DNA of 64,000 bases, from positions 1,381,147 to 1,445,146 of the forward strand of contig ML992505.1 in the NCBI GenBank assembly GCA_010093995.1, in the 5' to 3' direction. Both the position numbers and the translations under genes were made by a program. The stretch's first letter is position 1; the number at the start of each line of letters is the position of its first letter. Source of the stretch: Elsinoe ampelina (Eukaryota). Of the stretch, positions 26,629 through 57,022 are shown piece after piece. The notes beneath the pieces are model-generated. The model saw only the letters and a program-made list of their open reading frames with translations, was not told the origin of the DNA and did not search any database.

Positions 26629-27360
26629 ACGTAACTCACCTACGAGCAGTTTGTCCCTACAAGCAGTTTATAAAATTAGCTTTTTTTACCTTTTTAGTAA
26701 TATCTCTATAAAACCTTAATATCCTAGCCTAATATTATATATAATGCTAGATACTCTATAGATCTATATATACTACTAATCTTATTACTATAGAAGCTTA
26801 ACTACTACTAGTATTTAGATATTAAGTTTTCTAGATTTTATAACTTAAATTAGCTATATATTAGCTTTAAGAGAGTTATAATAAGGAATTGAAGAAATAT
26901 TATATAGCTACTACTAAAATTTATATTATATTATATTATTCTAGTATTAAATATATCTCTATTAAGAGATAATCTAGTTTTTAAGAGAATTTAACCTAAA
27001 AATAAAATTTTTAAGTTTTTAAAGCTACTTTTTAGACTTAGCTACTATAAGAGCTTAATACTTCTACTATCTATCTTATATCTAACTAAATATAGTAAAT
27101 ATTCTAAATTACCTCTTCTATATAAATATTTATTAAGAAAATTAGTAGTAAATTTTAGAAATCTAAAAGTCTATATTATAATAGCACTTCTAAGTTTTAT
27201 ATAGTGTCTTTGATACAACTTATAGTTCTAATATCTTACTAGTCCTATCTTAAATTTAAAGCTATATTAGCTATAGTTCGTAGAGATATTACTAAAAAGG
27301 TACAAAAAAGTAACTTTGTGAACCGCTCGTGGGGACGAACCGCTCGTGGGTGAGTCACGT
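26629..27360. mobile_element. Non-autonomous pogo-type element (MITE, 732 bp)
   Basis: TA-flanked ACGT..TIRs with two internal repeats (left TIR RIP-mutated, right TIR mostly intact); AT-rich interior without an ORF. Confidence 0.85.
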
Positions 27361-27362
27361 TA

Positions 27363-29243
27363 ACGTGACCCACCCACGAGTTGCGCACCCCCACAATTCG
27401 CGCACGCCCCTATATATATAACGCGTAATCTTCGTGACTATTCCTTCTTCCTACGTGACAAACATCATTCTTCGAGCTGTTTTATATGTATTCTGAAGCA
27501 GATATTAAAGCTGCTCTCCGAGGCTATCGGAACAATACTTACAACTCGATTCGACAAGCTGCTGACGCGTTTAAGATTCCGCCTTCTATGCTTCGAGATA
27601 GGCTTTACAGCCGACAATCACGTACTACACATAATCTACCGAAGCAGTTACTATCTCCGGCCAAAGAAGAGACGCTTGTTAGTTACCTCTTTTAGCTCGA
27701 TCACTTAGGAACACCTGCGACGCCTTTATTGACCTTAGAGCTTGTTATTGAGATAATTCGTCACCGAGCACGTCTATCCGACAATAACCTTCCCTCGTCT
27801 CTATCGTAGCCTATCGGTAAGAATTGGCTTAGCCAACTACGAAAGCGTTATCTACGTCTATAAAGCCTTTAGACTTGATAGCTAGAATCGTCACGGATAA
27901 AGGCTAGAACGTACGAGGCTATTACGCCGTTCTTTAACGCGTTATCCGACTTGTTTGAAAAGCACAACTATCCGCCAATAAACGTGTATAACCTCGACGA
28001 GGTAGGTTGTACAGTTGGTATAACGTAGTCGACGCGTGTACTAGTTGACGCTACAAACACACAGCGTCGAAAGAAGGCTAGAAAACGCGTTGTCGGCCGA
28101 CAGGAATAGATATTAATCCTAGAGTATGTACGAGCCTCCGGAGATGCGCTTCCCCCCCTCGTTATCTATAAGGCTAAAAACCTTAAAACAAACTAGATTC
28201 TAGATCCGTGGCCGGCCGGATGGCGTTTTTCAACGTCGAATAAAGGCTAGACGAGTAACGCGCACGGATTTGAATGGCTATCGACTGTCTTCGAGCCCGA
28301 AACACGTGACGTCGACGGCCGTCGACGCCTCCTTGTTCTAGACGGCCACAGCTCACACGTTACAGCTACGTTCGCCTTCTTCTGTTTCGAGCACGATATT
28401 GACCTTATAGTGTTCCCCCCTTATACGTTGCATATCCTCTAACCGCTTGATGTTGCATGTTTTTCGCCGTTAAAGACAGCTCTTACGAGGGAGATCGACA
28501 ATCTAATACGTCTAGATCACAGCCGAATACAACGTATACAATAGACAGAATCCTACGTCGCTATAAGAGTACGTGCTCTAACACCAAGAAACATCAAATC
28601 TAGCTTCGAACACTCCGGTATCTATCCGATAAGCCCTATTACCGTCCTTGCTAATTTGCCACACGAAGTACGTAACTGTCCGGTTACACCAACGGAAAAC
28701 ACAACGGAAAACAGCTAATTCGACCAAAGAGTCTTGCGGTTAGGGTCGCTATAATCCGGCGCAAGTTTACGTACGGTCAACCGTAGTCTGAACGCGCGCC
28801 TCGCTATCGTCGACGTCGAAACACTAGTAAAGCGATATATCTCGAAAATGACGTCACAATTCGAATCGTCGACGACGTCTCTTACGCTATTACGGCGCGA
28901 AATTGAACAACAGCGGCAGCTTCTCGAGACGCGTAAGTGTAAGAAAAGTGGTAAGCGCGTTACTATCGAAGGCCGGTTCGTCTTTAGTAAGCAAGAGACT
29001 ATCGATATCCTCCATAAAGCCGAAAAAGACTCAAAGAAGAAGAAGGGTAAAAAGCGTAAAAAGTCACTTACGCCGGAGCCTATATCACAGGTATCGGAAG
29101 AAGAGGTGTTTCCGGAGATACTTACTGATTCTGAGGACGAGCTAAGTTAGCTTAGATTAATAGAGTAATTGACTATTCTTGTTCAAAAGTGCCTTTTTAC
29201 GTGCGCGACTTGTGGGGGTGCGCGACTCGTGGGTGGGTCACGT
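27363..29243 (+). mobile_element. Pogo/Fot1-like element C, full length, lightly RIP-mutated
   Basis: TIR ACGTGACCCACCCACGAG.., TA TSDs; transposase 27486-~29150 with HTH, NLDE, RRLLVLDGHSSH and PLDV motifs and several stop codons. Confidence 0.95.
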
Positions 29244-30004
29244 TAGCTTGAGCAAATCTCTGATGTGGTCCATCAACGCATCAAACTAACGAGAACTAAA
29301 GTCACTCGAAGTAACATCGATTTGCTGGAGCTCACGGCGATCAACACTGCCTGCGTTCTTGACTTCCCTCGGCAATGTTCGACCGTCAAGCTTCCACCTA
29401 CGAACACCATCTGTCTGGTGGCTGTTACGCGACATGCACGCACGCTGATGAAGGGCATGATACAATCCAGCTGTCGGAGGTCATACTAGCGCTCGCATGC
29501 TGCCCTGAACGACGCGACAACTTAGGATGGTGAATAGGAGCACGACATTGACCACATTCCAGGGTCTTCAAGCTCATTCAAAGTGAATGGTCTGCAGAGC
29601 ATGGGATCAAAGTCGCCATATCCCAGTGTGCAACTAGGAGCGTTTGTTGTCAACTTGCATCCCAATTTCGTGCCAATCTCGGCCAAAAATCTGTGGAGCA
29701 TGTGGTTCACTCATTGATCTCCTTCTGATCAGGGCAAATCAATGGCGCTAAGATGGACAAGGACGCATGCGACCTGCGCAATGACAACGATTCTGAGATC
29801 GAAAACAGAAGCTGTCCGATTTTATGAGCTCACTCAAAAGTGTGTGACGCTCAGACACAGGACACTAAGGGGGGGTGACCACGTGAGAGAGTCTGTAACT
29901 TAGAGGCCAGAGCAGCTGAGAACCCCGTCACAGAGGCAAGAATGGGCCTTGGATTCTAAGAACGAGCGATGGAAAGTGCTTTTGTTGCAATCGAAGGCAA
30001 AATA

Positions 30005-31880
30005 ACGTGACCCACCCACGAGTCGCGCACCCCCACAAGTCGCGCACGTAAAAAGGCACTTTTGAACAAGAATAGTCAATTACTCTATTAATCTAAGCTA
30101 GCTCGTCCTCAGAATCAGTAAGTATCTCCGGAAACACCTCTTCTTCCGATACCTGTGATATAGGCTCCGGCGTAAGTGACTTTTTACGCTTTTTACCCTT
30201 CTTCTTCTTTGAGTCTTTTTCGGCTTTATAGAGGATATCGATAGTCTCTTGCTTACTAAAGACGAACCGGCCTTCGATAGTAACGCGCTTACCACTTTTC
30301 TTACGCTTACGCGTCTCGAGAAGCTGCCGCTGTTGTTTAATTTCGCGCCGTAATAGCGTAAGAGACGTCGTCGACGATTCGAATTATAACGTCATTTTCG
30401 AGATATATCGCTTTACCGGTGTTTCGACGTCGACGATAGCAAGGCGCGCGTTCAGACTACGGTTGACCGTACGTAAACTTGCGCCGGATTGTGGCGACCC
30501 TAACCGCAAGACTCTTTGGTCGAATTGGCTGTTTTCCGTTGTGTTTTCCGTTGGTGTAACCGGACGGTTACGTGCTTCGTGTGGCAAATTGGCAAGGACG
30601 GTAATAGGGCTTATCGGATAGATACCGGAGTGTTCGAAGCCAGATTTGATATTTCTTGGTGTTAGAGCACGTACTCTTGCAGCGACGTAGGATTCTGTCC
30701 ATTATATACGTTGTATTCGGCCGTGATCTAGACGTATTAGATTGTCGATCTCCCTCGTAAGAGCTGTCTTTAACGGCGAAAAACATGCGACGTTAAGCGG
30801 TTGGAGGATATGCGACGCGTGAGGGGGGAACACTACAAGGTCAATATCGTGCTCGAAACAGAAGAAGGCGAACGTAGCCGTAACGTGTGAGCTGTGGCCG
30901 TCTAGAACAAGGAGGCGTCGACGGCCGTCGACGTTACGTGTTTCGGGCTCGAAGACAGTCGATAGCTATTTAAATCCGTGCGCGTCACTTGTCCAGCCTT
31001 TATTCGACATTGAAAAACGCCATCCGGCCGGCCACGGATCTGGAATCTAGTTTGTTTTAAGGTTTTTAGCCTTGTAGATGACGAGGGGGGGAAGCGCATC
31101 TCCGGAGGCTCGTACATACTCTAGGATTGATATCCATTCCTGTCGGCCGACAACGCGTTTTCTAGCCTTCTTTCGACGCTGTGTGTTTGTAGCGTCAACT
31201 AGTACACGCGTCGACTGCGTTGTACCGACTGTACAACCTACCTCGTCGAGGTTATACACGTTTGTTGGCGGATAGTTGTGCTTTTCGAACAAGTCGGATA
31301 ACGCGTTAAAGAACGGCGTAATAGCCTCGTACGTTCTAGCCTTTATCCGTGACGATTCTAGCTGTCAAGTCTAAAGGCTTTATAGACGCAGATGACGCTT
31401 TCGTAGTTGGCTAAGCCAATTCTTACCGATAGGCTACGATAGAGACGAGGGAAGGTTATTATCGGATAGACGTGCTCGGTGACGAATTATCTTAATAACA
31501 AGCTCTAAGGTTAATAAAGGCGTCGCAGGCGTTCCTAAGTGATCGAGCTGAAAGAGGTAACTAACAAGCGTCTCTTCTTCGGCCGGAGATAGTAACTGCT
31601 TCGGTAGATTACGTGTAGTACGTGATTGTCGGCTGTGAAGCCTATCTCGAAGCGTAGAAGGCAGAATCTTAAACGCGTCGGCAGCTTGTCGAATCGAGTT
31701 GTAAGTATTGTTCCGATAGCCTCGGAGAGCAGCTTCAATATCTGCTTCAGAATACATATAAAACAGCTCGAAGAATGATGTTTGTCACGTAGGAAGAAGG
31801 AATAGTCACGAAGATTACGCGTTATATATATAGGGGCGTGCGCGAATTGTGGGGGTGCGCGACTCGTGGGTGGGTCACGT
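30005..31880 (-). mobile_element. Pogo/Fot1-like element D, inverted near-identical copy of C
   Basis: Same TIRs, TA TSDs (30003-04, 31881-82); transposase remnant starting at 31757. Confidence 0.95.
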
Positions 31881-33405
31881 TAATGCCAGATCGTCCCGAA
31901 TTTGTGCCGTCTTCATATCAGTCTTGACTGACTTGAAAATGTCTTGCGGTCAAGAAGTGCCACTTTCCGAGTGTCGAGAAGGTTAAGACAACCGTAGTCG
32001 GTCCTGTGGCCCTCTAGAACGGCACGGAAAATTTCCACCTCTGGAACGGAACGGAAAATTTCAAAAACTGGGACGGAACGGAATGGAAAAAATTCAGAGG
32101 GACGTTTGTTTGTTTCTCTCTCGTCAAGCAGCGTGTGTAATGGCGTCTTCTGCAGCCTCGTAGTCAGCAGTTGGGTGTGTTGATTCTACTTCGATCACCA
32201 TTGAAGCGTTCAAGTCAAAGGCCGTCTAACTACCAATATCGATGTAGACCAATGTGTTGCCACGGTTGACAGCAGATGTGCCTGCTTCAACGTAAAGCGC
32301 CCATTGTGTGCGGCGGATCGCTCGCAACACATGTGGCCTCCTTAAATGACAGGCGGTCCTGCAGGGCAACGACAAGGTCATTCCATCTGGGAGGATGGTA
32401 AAGTCACAGAAGGGCGAGGAGATCTGGCGGCTTGAATCATGAACGAGAGACGTTGAAAACTGCAGCAAGATCAGGGCTGGAAGGCTGATGTGACAAGCTA
32501 AGCGCGAAAGTGTCTAACTTATGAAGCTCAATTCACTTGCGACCTTTTCTTGCAAAGACTAACCTTCTAAGATATCAGGCGCCGCCGAGCACGTTGACCT
32601 GTTCGATTTATGCCTAAGTTATGAAGAACTTCACCCTGCGAAGCTTCTCATGACGCTGGATGCGAATAGAATTAGAAGAGAGATTAGGTTTCGCATCGAT
32701 TCACGTGGTCTCTTGTGCTTGTGAGCTGGAATCGGCGATGACGAGCTCCTGATGCTGGAGATGGCAGGAGGGAAAAGAGAAAAGGTCTTCTGAAAGCAAA
32801 GGTTCGGACCGCGACGCTCAATCTCATCTGGAATTTCTGACGACGTCGGGGTGTCGTGGAGAAAACGATCCTGATGGCCTTTCCCTTGATTAGGACCCCA
32901 GGCCAGCGCGAGAGCTGCAAAATCGCTTACGCCCCTGCATGATGCCGCATGCAACGTTGACTTAAGTTAGTTAACTTGCCTTATCTTAAGTTGACTTACG
33001 AGACAAAGACTGTTGATGAAGCTATGAAATGAACGTGCATTTACTTGTCCAGCACGTTGATGTGGCTGGCTAAGCATGATCTTTATTCTTATATCTTGCT
33101 GTCTGCTGTCCTTGCAGCATCTCTCCCACTAGACGCATGGCGAACCTCAGCTCGCATTGCTTAGCCATTCATCATGGTTGTCTAAGTTACACTATGGACG
33201 TGGAAGTCGATTCTACGAGCTGTGCTCAGCTGCAGCGGAATGGCTATAAGCTGTGCTTCGCTATTGGCGTCTCGGATCGTTCTGATGGGGGAGACCCGGT
33301 CTATAACGTTGTAGCCTCTGCTTCAGGTGTGTGCTGAGCGAATAGAATCATAAGCCGCGCTGACAACGAGACTAACTTACAGAAGTGTAGCAGAATTTGA
33401 CGATA

Positions 33406-35282
33406 ACGTCGCGCGTCCACGAGTCGCGCACGTCCACGAGTCGCGCACGTAAAATAGTACTTTTGAACAAGAATAGTCAATAACTCTATCAATCTAAGCT
33501 AGCTCGTCTCTAGAATCAGACTCGATAGGCTCTAGCTCCTCCTCTTCCTTAGGCTCTAGTGAATCCTCCGGCGTAAGCGATTTCTTACGCTTTTTACGCT
33601 TCTTATTCTTTGTCTCTTCTTTAGCCTTACGAAGGATATTGATGGTCTCTTGCTCGCTAAAGACAAACTAGCCTTCGACAGCGACGCGCTTGCCACTTTT
33701 CTTACGCTTACGCATCTCGAGAAGCTGTCGCTATTATTTAACTTCTCGTTGTAGTAGTACTAGAGCCGCCGTTAACGATTTAAATTGTAATATCATTTTC
33801 GTAATATATCGCTTGACTAGTGTTTTAACATCGACAACGGCTATACGTACGTTAAGACTATAGTTAGCTATACGTAAGCTTACGCCGGATTATAGCGACC
33901 CTAACTATAAGACTCCTTAGTCGAATTAGCTAGTTTCCGTTAGGGTAATTGCCCGATTAGGCGATTTGTTACGTGATTCGTATAGCAAATTAGCAAGCAC
34001 TATAATAGGGCTTATTAGATAGACGCTAGAGTATTTAAAACTAGATTTAATATTCCTTATAGTTAGAGTATACTCTCGTACGCGCGCGTAGGATTCGGCC
34101 TACTATATACAGTATATATAGCCTATATCGAAACGTATTAGATTGTCGATCTTAATTATAAGAGCTATCTTTAATAGTAAAAAACAAGACATGTCGAGAG
34201 GCTAAAGGATATATAACGTATAAGGTAGAAAGATAATAAGGTTAATATCGTACTTAAAATAGAAGAAGGTAAATATAGCTATAATGTACAAGCTATAGCT
34301 GTCTAGAATAAGGAGGTGTCGATAGCTATTAATGTTACATATTTTAGGCTCGAAGATAGTTATAAGCTACTCGTAACTATGTATATCACTTGTCTAGCCT
34401 TTATTCGATGTTAAGAATCGCTATCTAGCTAGCTACAGGTCTAGAATCTAGCGTATGTTAAGGTTTTTAGCCTTATATATAATAAGGGGGGGGAGCGTGT
34501 CTCTAGAGGCTCGTATATACTCGAGGATTAATATCTACTCTTATTAGCTAATAATGCGTTTTCTAGCCTTCTTTCGACGACGGGTATTATCTAAATTAAT
34601 AATAACTTATGTCGATTAAGTTAAACTAACGCTAGCGCCTACCTTGTCGAGGTTATAGACGTTAGAAGGGAGGTAGTTATATTTTTTAAACAAGTTAGAT
34701 AACACGTTAAAGAATAGCGCAATAGCCTTATAGGTTCTAGCTTTAAACCGTAGCGATTCTAGCTACTATAATTGACGTAGTTTAATCTCTAGATAACGTT
34801 TATAGAATCGATATATCTATGTCCTACTAATAGGATATATAAGAGATAGGGGAAGTTCGTTATTAGTTACTTATAACTAATATTAAATTATCTCGTAAAT
34901 AAGCTTATAGACGAAGGAGAGTGTTATAGGGGTACTAAGGCTATCGAGCTAAAGGATATAGACTATAAGCGTCTATTCTTCGGCCGGAGATAGTAATCGC
35001 TTTAGTAGGTTACGTATAGTACGTAATTGTCGGCTATAATATCTATCTCGAAGTATAGATAGTAGAATTTAAAACGTGTTAGTAGTAGCTCGAAGAGAGG
35101 TATAAGTATCGTTCTAATAGCCTCGGAGGGTAGCCTCGATATTAGCTTTAGAATATATAATAGAATAGCTCGAATTATAATATTTATTACGTAGGAAGGA
35201 AGAATAGTTACGAAAGTTACGCGTTAGATATATAGGGGCGTGCGCGACTCGTAGACGTGCGCGACTCGTAGACGCGCGACGT
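33406..35282 (-). mobile_element. Pogo/Fot1-like element E (same family as B), RIP-mutated
   Basis: TIR ACGTCGCGCGTCCACGAGTCGCGCACG.., TA TSDs, 1877 bp, degenerate transposase on the minus strand. Confidence 0.93.
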
Positions 35283-35301
35283 TATAGTAGACTAACGAGT
35301 A

Positions 35302-52617: not shown

Positions 52618-53907
52618 CTACTGCCCCTTCTTCCCCTTCCCCTTCCCCTTCCCCTTCCCCTGTCCCTTCCCCTTCCCCTTGGCCGGCGCGCTCGTCACCA
52701 CCGCCGCAGCAGTGGTAGTCTTGTTCCCTTTACCGCCTTTACCCTTACCCTTACCACCTGCAGCAGCCACGGCTGTCGGAGTGGGTGCCGGTGCGGTGGT
52801 GGTGGTGACTTTGCCGCCTTTACCCTTGCCCTTCCCTGCCGCCGCGCCGGTGCCGGTACCTTTGCCGTTCTTCCCTTTCTTGCCGTTGCCGCTGCCGTTG
52901 CCGGCGCCTTTGGCTGTGCCTGCGCCCTTGCCTTTGCCGGCCTTGCCCTTGTCTTTACCCTTGCCTTTCCCTGTCGCGGCGGCTGCTGGGGCGGTGGTTT
53001 TGTGGGGTGTCTTCTTCGCTTGGGCGCCGCGGAAGCCGTTCTCGAGATCTGTATCGTCGGGGAGCTCGGTTCCGCAGTCGTCGTCTGGAGCGCAGGTGGA
53101 GGAGGGAGTTGGTGCGGCGGTGGTGGTGGCGTTGTGGGATGCGGTGGGGGTGACGCTGGGAGTGGAAGGGGAGTCAGAGCCGTTGTCGTCGGAGCCGTCG
53201 TCCCAGCTGTCGTCGTCGTCGTCCCAGGAGTCATCGTCGTCGTCCCAGGAGTCATCGTCGTCGTCGCCGTTGTCGTTCCATCCGTCGTCGTCTTGGTCTT
53301 CGTCTGCGTCCGGGTCGTAGCCGGGGCCGTACCCGTAGTCCCAATCGTAGTCCCACGAGTCGTCGTCGTCGCCGCTGTCGCCCCAGATGTCGTCGGTGCC
53401 GTCCCACGAGGAGCCGGAGCCGTGACCGTGACCATGACCGGAGCCGGAGCCAGAGCTGGAGCCGTCGGATGACCAGTCGTAGTCGTAGTCATCGTCGTCC
53501 TCGTCGTCCTCGTCGTCCTCGTCGTCCTCGTCGTCCTCGTCGTCCTCGTCCTCGTCCCAGCTGTAGTCATCGTCATCATCGTCGTCGTCCCAGCTGTAGT
53601 CGTCGTCGTCGTCGTCCTCATCGTACCACGAATCATCGTCGTTGGGATCGAGCCAGTAATAGTCATCGTCATCGTCGTGACGGCTACCTTTGCCTTTGCC
53701 CTTGTGCTTGGACACGCCAGTCTTGGCGGTGTCGTCGGAGCGGGCGACGAGTGCGCTGTTGCTCACGGCATTGTCAGCCGCAGCAGCTTCATGCTGTGCG
53801 AGTGAGAGCTCGGGATACTCGAAGCCTGCGCGGCGACCAGGGAGGACTACTCTGGCTGCGACGATGTGCACGGCAGCGAGGAGGGTAAGAGGGATGTTGA
53901 CCTTCAT
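52618..53907 (-). CDS. Secreted low-complexity protein with an Asp/Trp-rich half and a Gly/Lys-rich half
   Basis: 429-aa ORF with signal peptide, SWDDDDD repeats and a GKGK-repeat C-terminus. Confidence 0.75.
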   Translation of the reverse strand: MKVNIPLTLLAAVHIVAARVVLPGRRAGFEYPELSLAQHEAAAADNAVSNSALVARSDDTAKTGVSKHKGKGKGSRHDDDDDYYWLDPNDDDSWYDEDDDDDDYSWDDDDDDDDYSWDEDEDDEDDEDDEDDEDDEDDDDYDYDWSSDGSSSGSGSGHGHGHGSGSSWDGTDDIWGDSGDDDDSWDYDWDYGYGPGYDPDADEDQDDDGWNDNGDDDDDSWDDDDDSWDDDDDSWDDGSDDNGSDSPSTPSVTPTASHNATTTAAPTPSSTCAPDDDCGTELPDDTDLENGFRGAQAKKTPHKTTAPAAAATGKGKGKDKGKAGKGKGAGTAKGAGNGSGNGKKGKNGKGTGTGAAAGKGKGKGGKVTTTTAPAPTPTAVAAAGGKGKGKGGKGNKTTTAAAVVTSAPAKGKGKGQGKGKGKGKGKKGQ

Positions 53908-55098
53908 GGTGGACTTTGTGGAACTGGATGAGAAGCCTGGTGGGCCTACCTGGATAGCTCAAGACACATATATACAATCTCTGCGCGAGGCAATGTGTCG
54001 AGGCTGCTCTGAGAGATTAGATTTCGATAACAGTTACAACGTTCTAGGAACGCCTCTGGCAGTGGGCAAGTTTGCCATGCTGTACCAAGTGTCAAGCAAC
54101 GGTTGACAGCTGCGACATGCTCCAAGTAGACATCGCCGGCGAATTGGAGTTTGATCGCGTTGTCTCATGACTGATGGACAGTTGACAGAGGTGCTGAGTG
54201 GTCCAGAGAGCGAGACATTGCAAAGCCACCACGACCGTTGATTGCTGTTTTCGACCACGTTGTTGACACGAGCTGCCCAGCTCATTGGCACTGGAGACAA
54301 GATCTCTCGAGAACGTCCGTTGAGGCTTGTGGTGGGTCTTGTGTGAGAAGAGAAGCTGAAGTGAACACCTGGAGTTCAGAATGACATGTGGCGGTGCACG
54401 CTATCGAATGCCGTTGTGGCGTACAAGTGCCGACAACACCACATGGGAGAGAGACCGTTGACAGTGTCTAGCCACACTGTCACTTGGTTTTCCATACTGA
54501 TCAAATCGAGAATGAGGCAATTCAAGTGCTATGAGACAGGTTCTGCTCGAAACGATAGATAGTATTAGGCTTTAATACCATCTACCAAAACTTCTCGATA
54601 TGCATGTAATGCTCGTTGACTATCCAAGCACTGGTCCTTTTACCCGAGCGCGTGATCTGACGGTCTCTCGGCCGTCCAATGCTTAAGCAACTTCTGGCCT
54701 GACATTCCCAGGCATGGCAGCACGTTGACAGAGGCTGTGCTTGTTTTGGGCGACTTAGATCTCCCGTACCAATCTTGAATATGTAAGGGCTACTGTAGCG
54801 TCAGCTTTCATGTTAGAGCCTATGCTGTCTCGGGGCAGATTAAAAGGCTGGTCAAAGGACGTAGCAATCAGAGCAGACAAAGGGAAGAATTTGCTATACT
54901 ATATGGCCCAACTCTACCACTCTAAACACTTCAACTTTCGAATTCCGTGCATAACGGACGACCGCTACAGATGGACATGAGCTGATTCCAAGTTTCGGCA
55001 GCCAACTTTTCCATAGAAAGTGCAGCAAATCTCATGCGATCGTGGCAAAAGTATTCAACTGAAATCACGATTCAGGAACGTTAGACAAGAGGCTAAGG

Positions 55099-55490
55099 CA
55101 CTTACAGCAGGTACTTACAGTCGTGCAGGTACTTATAGTCGAACAGGCACTTACAGTCGAACAGGTACTTACAGTCGAACAGGTACTTACAGTCGAACAG
55201 GNNNNNNNNNNNNNNNNNNNNNNNNNNNNNNNNNNNNNNNNNNNNNNNNNNNNNNNNNNNNNNNNNNNNNNNNNNNNNNNNNNNNNNNNNNNNNNNNNNN
55301 NNNNNNNNNNNNNNNNNNNNNNNNNNNNNNNNNNNNNNNNNNNNNNNNNNNNNNNNNNNNNNNNNNACTTACAGTCGAACAGGTACTTACAGTCGAACAG
55401 GTACTTACAGTCGAACAGGTACTTACAGTCGAACAGGTACTTACAGTCGAACAGGTACTTATAGTCAAATAGGTACCTACAGTCGAACAT
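55099..55490. repeat. 18-bp tandem repeat (ACTTACAGTCGAACAGGT)n spanning an assembly gap
   Basis: About a dozen visible units, some degenerate, on both sides of the N run at 55202-55366. Confidence 0.95.
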
Positions 55491-55525
55491 GATGATCAAA
55501 AACTCTAAAAAGTTTTGCAAAAAAG

Positions 55526-55617
55526 TCTCCGCTCCCAGAATCGAACTAGGGACCTTTCGATGGCAGCAATGCTGAGACAATTACAGTCGAACGTGATGAA
55601 CCAACTACACCACTGAG
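55526..55617 (-). tRNA. tRNA-Tyr(GTA) with a 19-nt intron; possibly a pseudogene
   Basis: D arm, TTCGA-CTGTAA[intron 55562-55580]A-TCGAA anticodon arm, CCTAG-TTCGATT-CTGGG T arm, 73 nt spliced, followed by a T run. Two mismatches in the acceptor stem. Confidence 0.88.
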
Positions 55618-57022
55618 GTAGGATTAGTACTCTAATCCTGCTGTACAAGACACTCGGGTCAACTTACAGCGGAGGTTATGATAGTGAAGCGGCGTCAAAC
55701 AAATATGTTCTCAGCTTTTCAACCTTGAGCTCGATCGTTCGATCTGGCGTATCAGGGAGGCCAGTAGACATTTGCCTTCATGTCAAGCGGACTCAGCTTG
55801 TCGCAAGTGGGTGACCTGGAATTGAGACGCACAAAGGGCGAGGAACCTTTGCTCCACGCTTGTCCGATGTTATTCGCCATGTCAGAATCCTGGTCGCATT
55901 TGCTAAGACCAACCGCCAACGCAGACGAGGCAACCTACGACTAGCACCAACCTGTCTCGCTGCGCATCACTGTCAGCAGATGTGTTATCAGCTGTCAGCT
56001 CATGTCAAGGGACAAGCTGCGTAAATCCGCAGGCGTGGCTCGGGAAGCCGCGGCGAAAAGGCCGATGGTTGGTGGGCATCGCCATGTTCAGTGGAAGAAG
56101 CAAAACACGTGGAGGCTTCGACTGTTGCGAGCTGGTGGAAACGGTCATGTCATCGTGAGTATGTATCTCTTTTCCAAGCTCCTATCTGTCGCATGCCATC
56201 AAAAGAGGTCACCTGCAAGCATCACCACATGGCAGCTTCCTGTTTTCGTGACTGCGAACCAGCGGTAGGCTGACCCTAATTGTGAAATTCCCATGTTTCA
56301 CTTGTTTCGATTGGTCGGATCGTGTGGGTGACAAAAGTCCGGCTCATGACGATCAACCTTTGGCGTGGAACTAAATCTGCTAAATCTGCCCTCTCCCGAC
56401 AGAGCCGCGCCAAGTAGATTCGAAAGAGCGCAAAGTCAAGCGACCAAGAAAGGTCAAAGACGGAGCGAGGGCAGATCACGCTTGTCCGGTTGGCTGTTTC
56501 GAGCAAATAATCTAGCTCACCGTGCCGCGGAGTGCTGCCAAAAGTCCGGGAGAGCGAGTTGATGGGGTTTCCAAACTCGCTAACCGCGCTTTCTTGGCCG
56601 GCCACTGCAGCTCGCCTCCAGCTCTCTGGCAGGCTCAGGTCTCTCACACGCTCCGCCGACCGAGCGCACGTCCACTGTCCCGACGAAGCCACATCTTTAT
56701 CCCATACCTCATCACTTGACCGTCGTCATATCTCCTACACCCACATCCTCGACCACTCGCTTACCTTCGCGACCGACGCGATTCGACTCGGAAAACACCT
56801 CTCCTCCGATGCGCACCGTTTTGGACTGATGATCTCCACGCCTCGAGCTTCAGCGCACCACCTCTCTCCGAACCGGACGGCAGCTGCGTTCTGCCTCAAT
56901 CACGTCCGACCAGGCTTTGCGAATCGATCAGACCACGCGAAAGAGGTGTCATAATCAACTTGGAAATTGAAAAACTGGCCATTTGCATTACATGAGCTTG
57001 GCGGCACAGTCCTGCTCCGGCG

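Follow-up and report, generated by a model that had tools for sequence, protein, structure and literature searches.

A probable tRNA-derived minisatellite beside a tRNA-Tyr gene with a putative spliceosomal intron in Elsinoe ampelina

Spliceosomal introns are known in the genes for U6 (in Schizosaccharomyces pombe and other fungi), U1, U2, U5 and rRNA (PMC5855946). U6 is a Pol III transcript encoded by a sole copy in S. pombe, and genes of this kind carry up to four unrelated introns each (PMC5855946). The splicing of tRNAs is described as independent of the spliceosome (PMC13149111; PMC12530127), and our searches of the open-access literature turned up no tRNA gene described as having a spliceosomal intron. 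Repeats linked to tRNA genes have been described in Entamoeba, where the proposed origin is strand slippage near tRNA genes at which replication pauses (PMC2652664). As for Elsinoe ampelina itself, a kingdom-wide survey counted fewer than 30 anticodons in 11 fungi, this species being one of them, and suggested that tRNAs are imported from the host (PMC8826637).

Here we analyse a stretch of 64,000 nucleotides of E. ampelina contig ML992505.1 (assembly GCA_010093995.1, positions 1,381,147 to 1,445,146), referred to below as the window, in which a tandem array lies beside a tRNA-Tyr gene. The array alone is minor; the noteworthy feature is the intron-split tRNA-Tyr gene next to it. A sole-copy tRNA-Tyr gene, being indispensable to the cell, is the cleanest test of the doctrine that tRNA splicing is free of the spliceosome.

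Structure of the tRNA-Tyr(GTA) gene

An initial annotation of this DNA had the tRNA-Tyr gene ending at 55617. Its first seven bases, at 55674-55668, are in fact separated from the remainder by a GT-AG insert of 55 nt. ARAGORN called 0 tRNA genes on the unmodified window, and the Rfam match to the gene was limited to model positions 8-63, because the first seven bases of the tRNA sit beyond that insert. With the 55 nt taken out in silico, ARAGORN called a complete tRNA-Tyr(GTA) at a score of 110.5, its acceptor stem 7 bp long and its ordinary intron 19 nt. The parts of the gene, all on the minus strand, are as follows.

55668-55674, minus strand: exon 1, the 5' acceptor-stem strand (tRNA positions 1-7); 7/7 pairs with 55533-55527 once the intron is removed
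55613-55667, minus strand: spliceosomal-type intron of 55 nt between tRNA positions 7 and 8, recognized by its sequence signals; splicing predicted
55581-55612, minus strand: exon 2, with D arm, 5' anticodon stem, anticodon GTA (55584-55582) and position 37; from ARAGORN on the in-silico spliced gene and a partial match to Rfam RF00005
55562-55580, minus strand: ordinary tRNA intron of 19 nt after position 37, from the in-silico reconstruction
55526-55561, minus strand: exon 3, with 3' anticodon stem, T arm, 3' acceptor strand and discriminator, from Rfam and the reconstruction
55519-55524, minus strand: T6 run in the sequence, resembling a Pol III terminator and presumably acting as one

Two more T5 runs follow the T6 run, at 55511-55507 and 55502-55498. 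By sequence, the locus thus offers a full cloverleaf after removal, a GTA anticodon and a T run past the gene, and we infer that it is a working tRNA-Tyr(GTA) gene with a precursor that depends on two systems of splicing.

Neither BLAST nor four pattern searches turned up another tRNA-Tyr in the 28.3-Mb, 161-contig gapped draft assembly. Several candidates were rejected: 27 matches with mismatches to the D arm or the 3' end of tRNA-Tyr proved on checking to be something other than tRNA; a 'Tyr' call by ARAGORN at L075 (anticodon gta) becomes Glu(TTC), a canonical reading of higher quality, once a GT-AG intron is removed; and another at L050 (ata) is not a tyrosine gene and reads as Ile(TAT) by eye. 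The split gene is the only tRNA-Tyr found in this draft assembly, and an extra copy could sit in unassembled DNA.

The neighbouring genes encode Vps41, DUF155, XPG, and PAS plus GATA domains. About 1.1 kb past the array lies a frame of 446 codons (52618-53958, minus strand) that begins like a signal peptide, is rich in Asp over a long middle part and closes with a tail rich in Gly and Lys; it had no Pfam match. Elsewhere in the window (27360-35284), an element of 1.9 kb, bounded by terminal inverted repeats of 46 bp, occurs three times, two copies being 96% alike and inverted and the third decayed; these copies adjoin AT-rich DNA at 11-28 kb.

The 55-nt insert carries a donor GTAAGT (55667-55662), a branch-like CTAAT (55627-55623) and an acceptor CAG (55615-55613). 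These are the sequence marks of a U2-type intron: the donor is GTRAGT-like, a branch motif near the 3' end is followed by YAG, and exact removal restores the host RNA. When seven registers of removal were compared, only GT..AG yielded the best identity to an orthologue (L090), 21/22. Among 21 fungal tRNA-Tyr orthologue loci, taken from a collection of metagenome contigs, the exon 1 heptamer abuts the D arm directly in 20, and the remaining locus differs by one base. The 55-nt insert was present in 0/21 of these loci, a count limited by a search pattern that is blind to genes with introns inside positions 8-36. Their ordinary intron after position 37 measures 11-37 nt. Within the 55-nt intron of E. 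ampelina, a perfect 8-bp inverted repeat (55639-55632/55627-55620) spans the branch motif.

A related organism, organism C (run X7, contig depth 4.8), has the whole tRNA-Tyr gene including the 55-nt intron. Its intron shows three listed substitutions and one insertion, none on donor, branch or acceptor, with 5 of the 9 differing letters unlisted; two of the changes lie in the loop of the 8-bp hairpin, and no listed stem base is altered. The sequence of organism C diverges directly past the terminator and its contig stops there, so that the array region is outside its reach. Taken together, the signals at this locus point to a spliceosomal intron, with both its splicing and the spliceosome as its agent being predicted from sequence.

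For evidence at the RNA level, four of the nine listed sequencing runs, all in the form of contigs, were compared with 55452-56900; four of the nine are RNA by guess. No spliced joint was present in the four contig runs, in which a 7-nt exon 1 could hardly show as a contig joint. Run X3 (RNA by guess) contained one unspliced 104-nt piece (55566-55669; depth 44) with no cover to either side of it, the only gene-covering piece in an RNA-guess run, and this fits a discrete tRNA-Tyr precursor. Runs X4 and X6 had no cover over the gene, and 55452-55500 was uncovered in every run, gaps in cover that carry no weight as evidence. The X3 piece terminates in adapter, and its last two matching letters also fit the start of the standard adapter, so that the sequenced insert may stop at 55667, where the intron begins, like a splicing intermediate; we did not count this end as evidence because contigs cannot show RNA ends.

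Spliceosomal-type introns in other tRNA genes

The same kind of interruption recurs across the tRNA genes of this genome. Among 58 candidate anchors, a partial set (63 of 820 family-search candidates were scored), 11 read as tRNA unmodified, 17 did so only after removal of one to three GT-AG or GC-AG segments, and 30 were uncalled, the last group comprising non-tRNA sites plus several real tRNA genes. Intron removal was therefore needed for 17 of the 28 reconstructed genes. The 26 removed segments span 45-62 nt, with 25 of them within 45-55 nt, under a strict filter in which the script imposed a length of 42-70 nt and a branch motif. The 17 loci that become canonical only after one to three removals are:

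L014, L019, L020, L021, L022, L026, L038, L047, L055, L056, L061, L069, L075, L076, L077, L083, L088

They include an initiator-type Met tRNA (L022), a Ser(CGA) with a GC-AG intron (L055) and two genes with three introns each, Arg(ACG) and Gly(TCC); L088 was probably mis-solved by the script. Standard tRNA finders miss such intron-split genes, and hidden introns would be a simpler cause than tRNA import for the low anticodon count of E. ampelina.

Several further loci were noted along the way. L024, L048 and L072 look intron-split by eye and were unsolved by the script. In the first insert of L088, a probable tRNA-Asn, about 19 bp are duplicated in tandem, the branch motif among them. A Ser(TGA)-like gene (L066:1350-1530) has, by eye, an intron-like insert in its D arm with donor and branch and seemingly without a YAG acceptor, which makes it non-canonical or broken. 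A U6 snRNA gene (L080:767-1000, partial Rfam match) appears to be interrupted by two or more GT-AG introns. On contig C2, three elements that are related to one another and roughly 200 nt long (L051, L052 and L053) each have a terminal T run; L051 and L053 were searched against Rfam and matched no family, and we presume all three to be SRP RNA-like.

Two other accounts of the interrupted tRNA-Tyr gene have to be weighed. It might be a pseudogene, the working tRNA-Tyr residing in unassembled DNA and perhaps in the gap of the adjacent array; the assembly is a draft, no spliced product was seen in the contigs compared, and the content of the gap is unseen. Set against this, every stem pairs once the intron is taken out, the exons agree with those of the orthologues, organism C retains exons and splice signals despite diverging flanks, and the length of the gap matches pure repeat. 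We consider a pseudogene quite unlikely. Alternatively, the tRNA endonuclease might remove the 55-nt insert as a non-canonical intron. The insert can be folded, with the 8-bp hairpin over the branch motif and the donor paired with an internal stretch, but the predicted fold places the 5' junction inside a helix and is no more stable than shuffled sequence (z -1.47). A bulge-helix-bulge, in which both junctions sit in bulges around a short helix, was not found in the predicted precursor fold, and exact GT..AG ends with a branch motif occur in this insert and in 25 others. Removal by the endonuclease is accordingly rated as highly improbable, and a working gene with a spliceosomal intron remains the reading that we prefer.

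The tandem array and its origin

The array extends over approximately 55096-55495, surrounding an assembly gap, and is built of 18-bp units in the same orientation as the tRNA-Tyr gene.

55478-55495, minus strand: seed copy of tRNA 55599-55582, 17/18 identical, overlapping the first array unit (0/5000 in the null set)
55367-55488, minus strand: tRNA-proximal part of the array, 7 units, the two outermost worn (unit table)
55202-55366, no strand: assembly gap of 165 N in the sequence, where 163 would be exactly 9 further units in phase
55096-55201, minus strand: distal part of the array, 5 units and one truncated, the outer three worn (unit table)
55059-55105, minus strand: intron-like stretch of 47 nt (GTAAGT, CTAAC, CAG), a sequence pattern that begins in the last truncated unit; unproven

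The initial annotation had described the array as built from the anticodon arm of the adjacent tRNA-Tyr gene, and most of its description was borne out. The unit does contain a 12-mer identical to tRNA 55581-55592, accompanied by six other bases; the match of the proximal unit does reach into the D arm (55495-55478 against 55599-55582, 17/18, 104 bp downstream); and the array does lie past the Pol III terminator (T6 at 55524-55519) in the orientation of the gene, with the assembly broken by the 165-N gap inside it. The claim that every unit holds the 12-mer and reads GTAAGT on the minus strand was too broad. The 12-mer is exact in 8 of the 12 sequenced units (11 full and one cut by the gap), and GTAAGT occurs 10 times over 13 units including the truncated last.

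The seed match scored 31, against a maximum of 25 among 5000 equal-length queries from the window (0/5000 as high). Six inner units among the 11 full ones tabulated are identical, and all eight differences fall in the five outer ones, 7/8 being transitions. Because the gap measures 165 where pure repeat would give 163, a total of about 21 units is estimated, hidden copies included. As long as the gap size is an estimate, the gap is unlikely to conceal a large insertion. The longer match of the proximal unit suggests that the order of events was tRNA, single copy, then amplification. The earlier proposal that a duplicated tRNA fragment was amplified is backed by the seed match, the orientation and the unit pattern. 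Among the explanations offered for it, a neutral minisatellite fits best, given the worn outer units, the gap length and the uniqueness of the array, with neutrality presumed. The units run head to tail, are within 10-60 bp and have worn edges, as in minisatellites, and the array is most likely an ordinary minisatellite grown from a stray copy of part of tRNA-Tyr. It would have no selected function, a view that follows from an absence of evidence for one. A hairpin-driven array was considered and rejected, the DNA fold being weaker than 193 of 200 shuffles.

The 11-mer core of the unit occurs 12 times in the genome, 10 times at this locus and twice in non-tRNA contexts, and the DNA past the array is single-copy. 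When 38 tRNA loci were compared with their own flanks, a tRNA-derived array was found only here; one locus (L020) gave one inverted partial copy and the other 36 scored 27 or less. The two-unit pattern of the array had 0 matches in the metagenome contigs, and none of the 21 fungal tRNA-Tyr loci (14 different flanks among them; downstream sequence of 300 nt or more for 19) had a second anticodon 10-mer or a matching repeat. A search for similar arrays beside other tRNA genes, as had been recommended, thus turned up none that is tRNA-derived at the 37 other loci or the 21 orthologue loci. The partial copy at L020 (contig C68), about 290 nt downstream of its gene, is an inverted stretch of roughly 107 nt from the 3' part of tRNA-Arg(TCG) including the intron, and by its sequence is a second case of local tRNA-sequence copying. 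An unrelated 12-bp array surrounds a 100-N gap at L019:2122-2475, about 600 bp upstream of the intron-split tRNA-Arg(CCT), and has no tRNA match.

The annotation had also considered that a tyrosine-recombinase element aimed at tRNA genes, for example a Starship, left the units as serial scars or has them as decoy targets. Hephaestus targets TTAC(N7)A (PMC10104507), and the array shares with its target sites a TTAC core on the plus strand; TTAC(N7)A is present once, at the far edge of the array, the genome has two DUF3435 matches, and some Starship families target 5S rDNA (PMC11162782). Yet the conserved A is missing at 11 of the 12 TTAC sites, including that of the tRNA itself, and the sole fit is the truncated edge unit. 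Neither a captain nor element ends were found in the sequenced DNA here: the two DUF3435 captains are on contigs C2 and C3 and none is on C5, the contig of the array. The proposed search of Starship ends for the array core gave no common word of 10 letters or more within roughly 10 kb to either side of the two captains, the far ends of their elements being unlocated. Moreover, Hephaestus excision leaves no footprint (PMC10104507), the targets named in the relevant part of the Starship literature are 5S rDNA and AT-rich DNA rather than tRNA (PMC11162782), and the DNA flanking the repeats is single-copy. We give this explanation very little credence.

A rather unlikely alternative is that the array acts as a run of splice donors in a read-through or nearby-start transcript, forming one intron to an acceptor at 55059, or as a U1 snRNP lure for the tRNA gene. 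Ten GTAAGT motifs lie on the tRNA strand in the sequenced part, array units have GTAAG where the anticodon loop of the tRNA has GTAAT, and the last donor opens the 47-nt stretch with branch and CAG, similar in size to the tRNA introns of this genome. However, three T runs separate the tRNA-Tyr gene from the array, the same downstream intron-like pattern follows 8 of the 50 GTAAGT sites of the window, and an array of this kind is absent from all 16 other intron-split tRNA genes. A derivation of the far end of the array from exon 1 plus intron was likewise tried and rejected, as the likeness (46/5000) is gone once the donor is left out (4193/5000). That the approximately 20 donor motifs behind the terminator help to recruit U1 to the locus is, in our estimate, very unlikely. 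As for an assembly artefact, the array borders a gap and the raw reads are unseen, but distinct point changes mark five outer units and the repeat stays in phase across the gap, which makes this exceedingly improbable.

Proposed history and comparison with known systems

Our reading of the locus joins a tRNA-derived minisatellite without a selected function to a working tRNA-Tyr gene with a spliceosomal and an endonuclease-type intron, and we give it a probability of roughly 0.7. An 18-nt piece of tRNA-Tyr from the D stem and anticodon arm would have been copied 104 bp downstream, by a route that can only be surmised, and the 18-bp unit then amplified to about 21 copies through unequal exchange or slippage of strands. 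Template switching and slippage beside an active tRNA gene are the probable origin of the array, as in the Entamoeba proposal (PMC2652664).

The tRNA-Tyr precursor would start a few bases before 55674 and end at the T6 run. The spliceosome would then excise the 55-nt intron, joining the seven acceptor bases to the D arm so that the acceptor stem can form; the ends would next be trimmed and the 19-nt intron excised by the tRNA endonuclease, in this presumed order. The A box normally sets the start of transcription about 20 bp upstream of itself. Here the intron moves exon 1 upstream, to a distance of over 60 nt from the A box, and a start placed by the A box would fall inside the 55-nt intron, so the start must be set in another, unusual way, perhaps by a weak AT-rich element near 55707 or by Pol II. 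We hold with good confidence that this fungus is unable to make tRNA-Tyr without the spliceosome, its sole gene gaining an acceptor stem by mRNA-type splicing before ordinary tRNA splicing. Several questions become testable at this locus: the use of the spliceosome by an uncapped Pol III-type transcript, the choice of start site with a displaced A box, and the entry of introns into abundant non-coding RNAs.

The array has partial parallels elsewhere. Like the Entamoeba repeats, it is a tandem repeat beside a tRNA gene; those repeats are genome-wide, in arrayed units and without a tRNA derivation stated in the relevant part of the source, whereas here a tRNA-derived unit occupies a single locus (PMC2652664). 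The SINE-derived satellites of reptiles likewise grew by amplification of a portion of a small element of Pol III type, although their source is a mobile SINE at many loci and not, as here, an adjacent tRNA gene at one locus (PMC10702118).

The split gene can be set beside both kinds of known intron. Its 19-nt intron after position 37 is like ordinary eukaryotic tRNA introns, which are widely kept in tRNA-Tyr(GUA), while the 55-nt intron, at position 7/8 and with GT-AG signals, is unlike them (PMC13149111; PMC12530127). The closer likeness is to the U6-type cases, which share with it a short intron with canonical donor, branch and acceptor in a small structural RNA gene (PMC5855946). Removal has been demonstrated for S. 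pombe U6 and is predicted for tRNA-Tyr here (PMC5855946). The tRNA-Tyr case differs from U6 in having a tRNA as host, in that the intron cuts the 5' acceptor strand off from the rest, and in the additional, endonuclease-type intron of the same precursor (PMC5855946).
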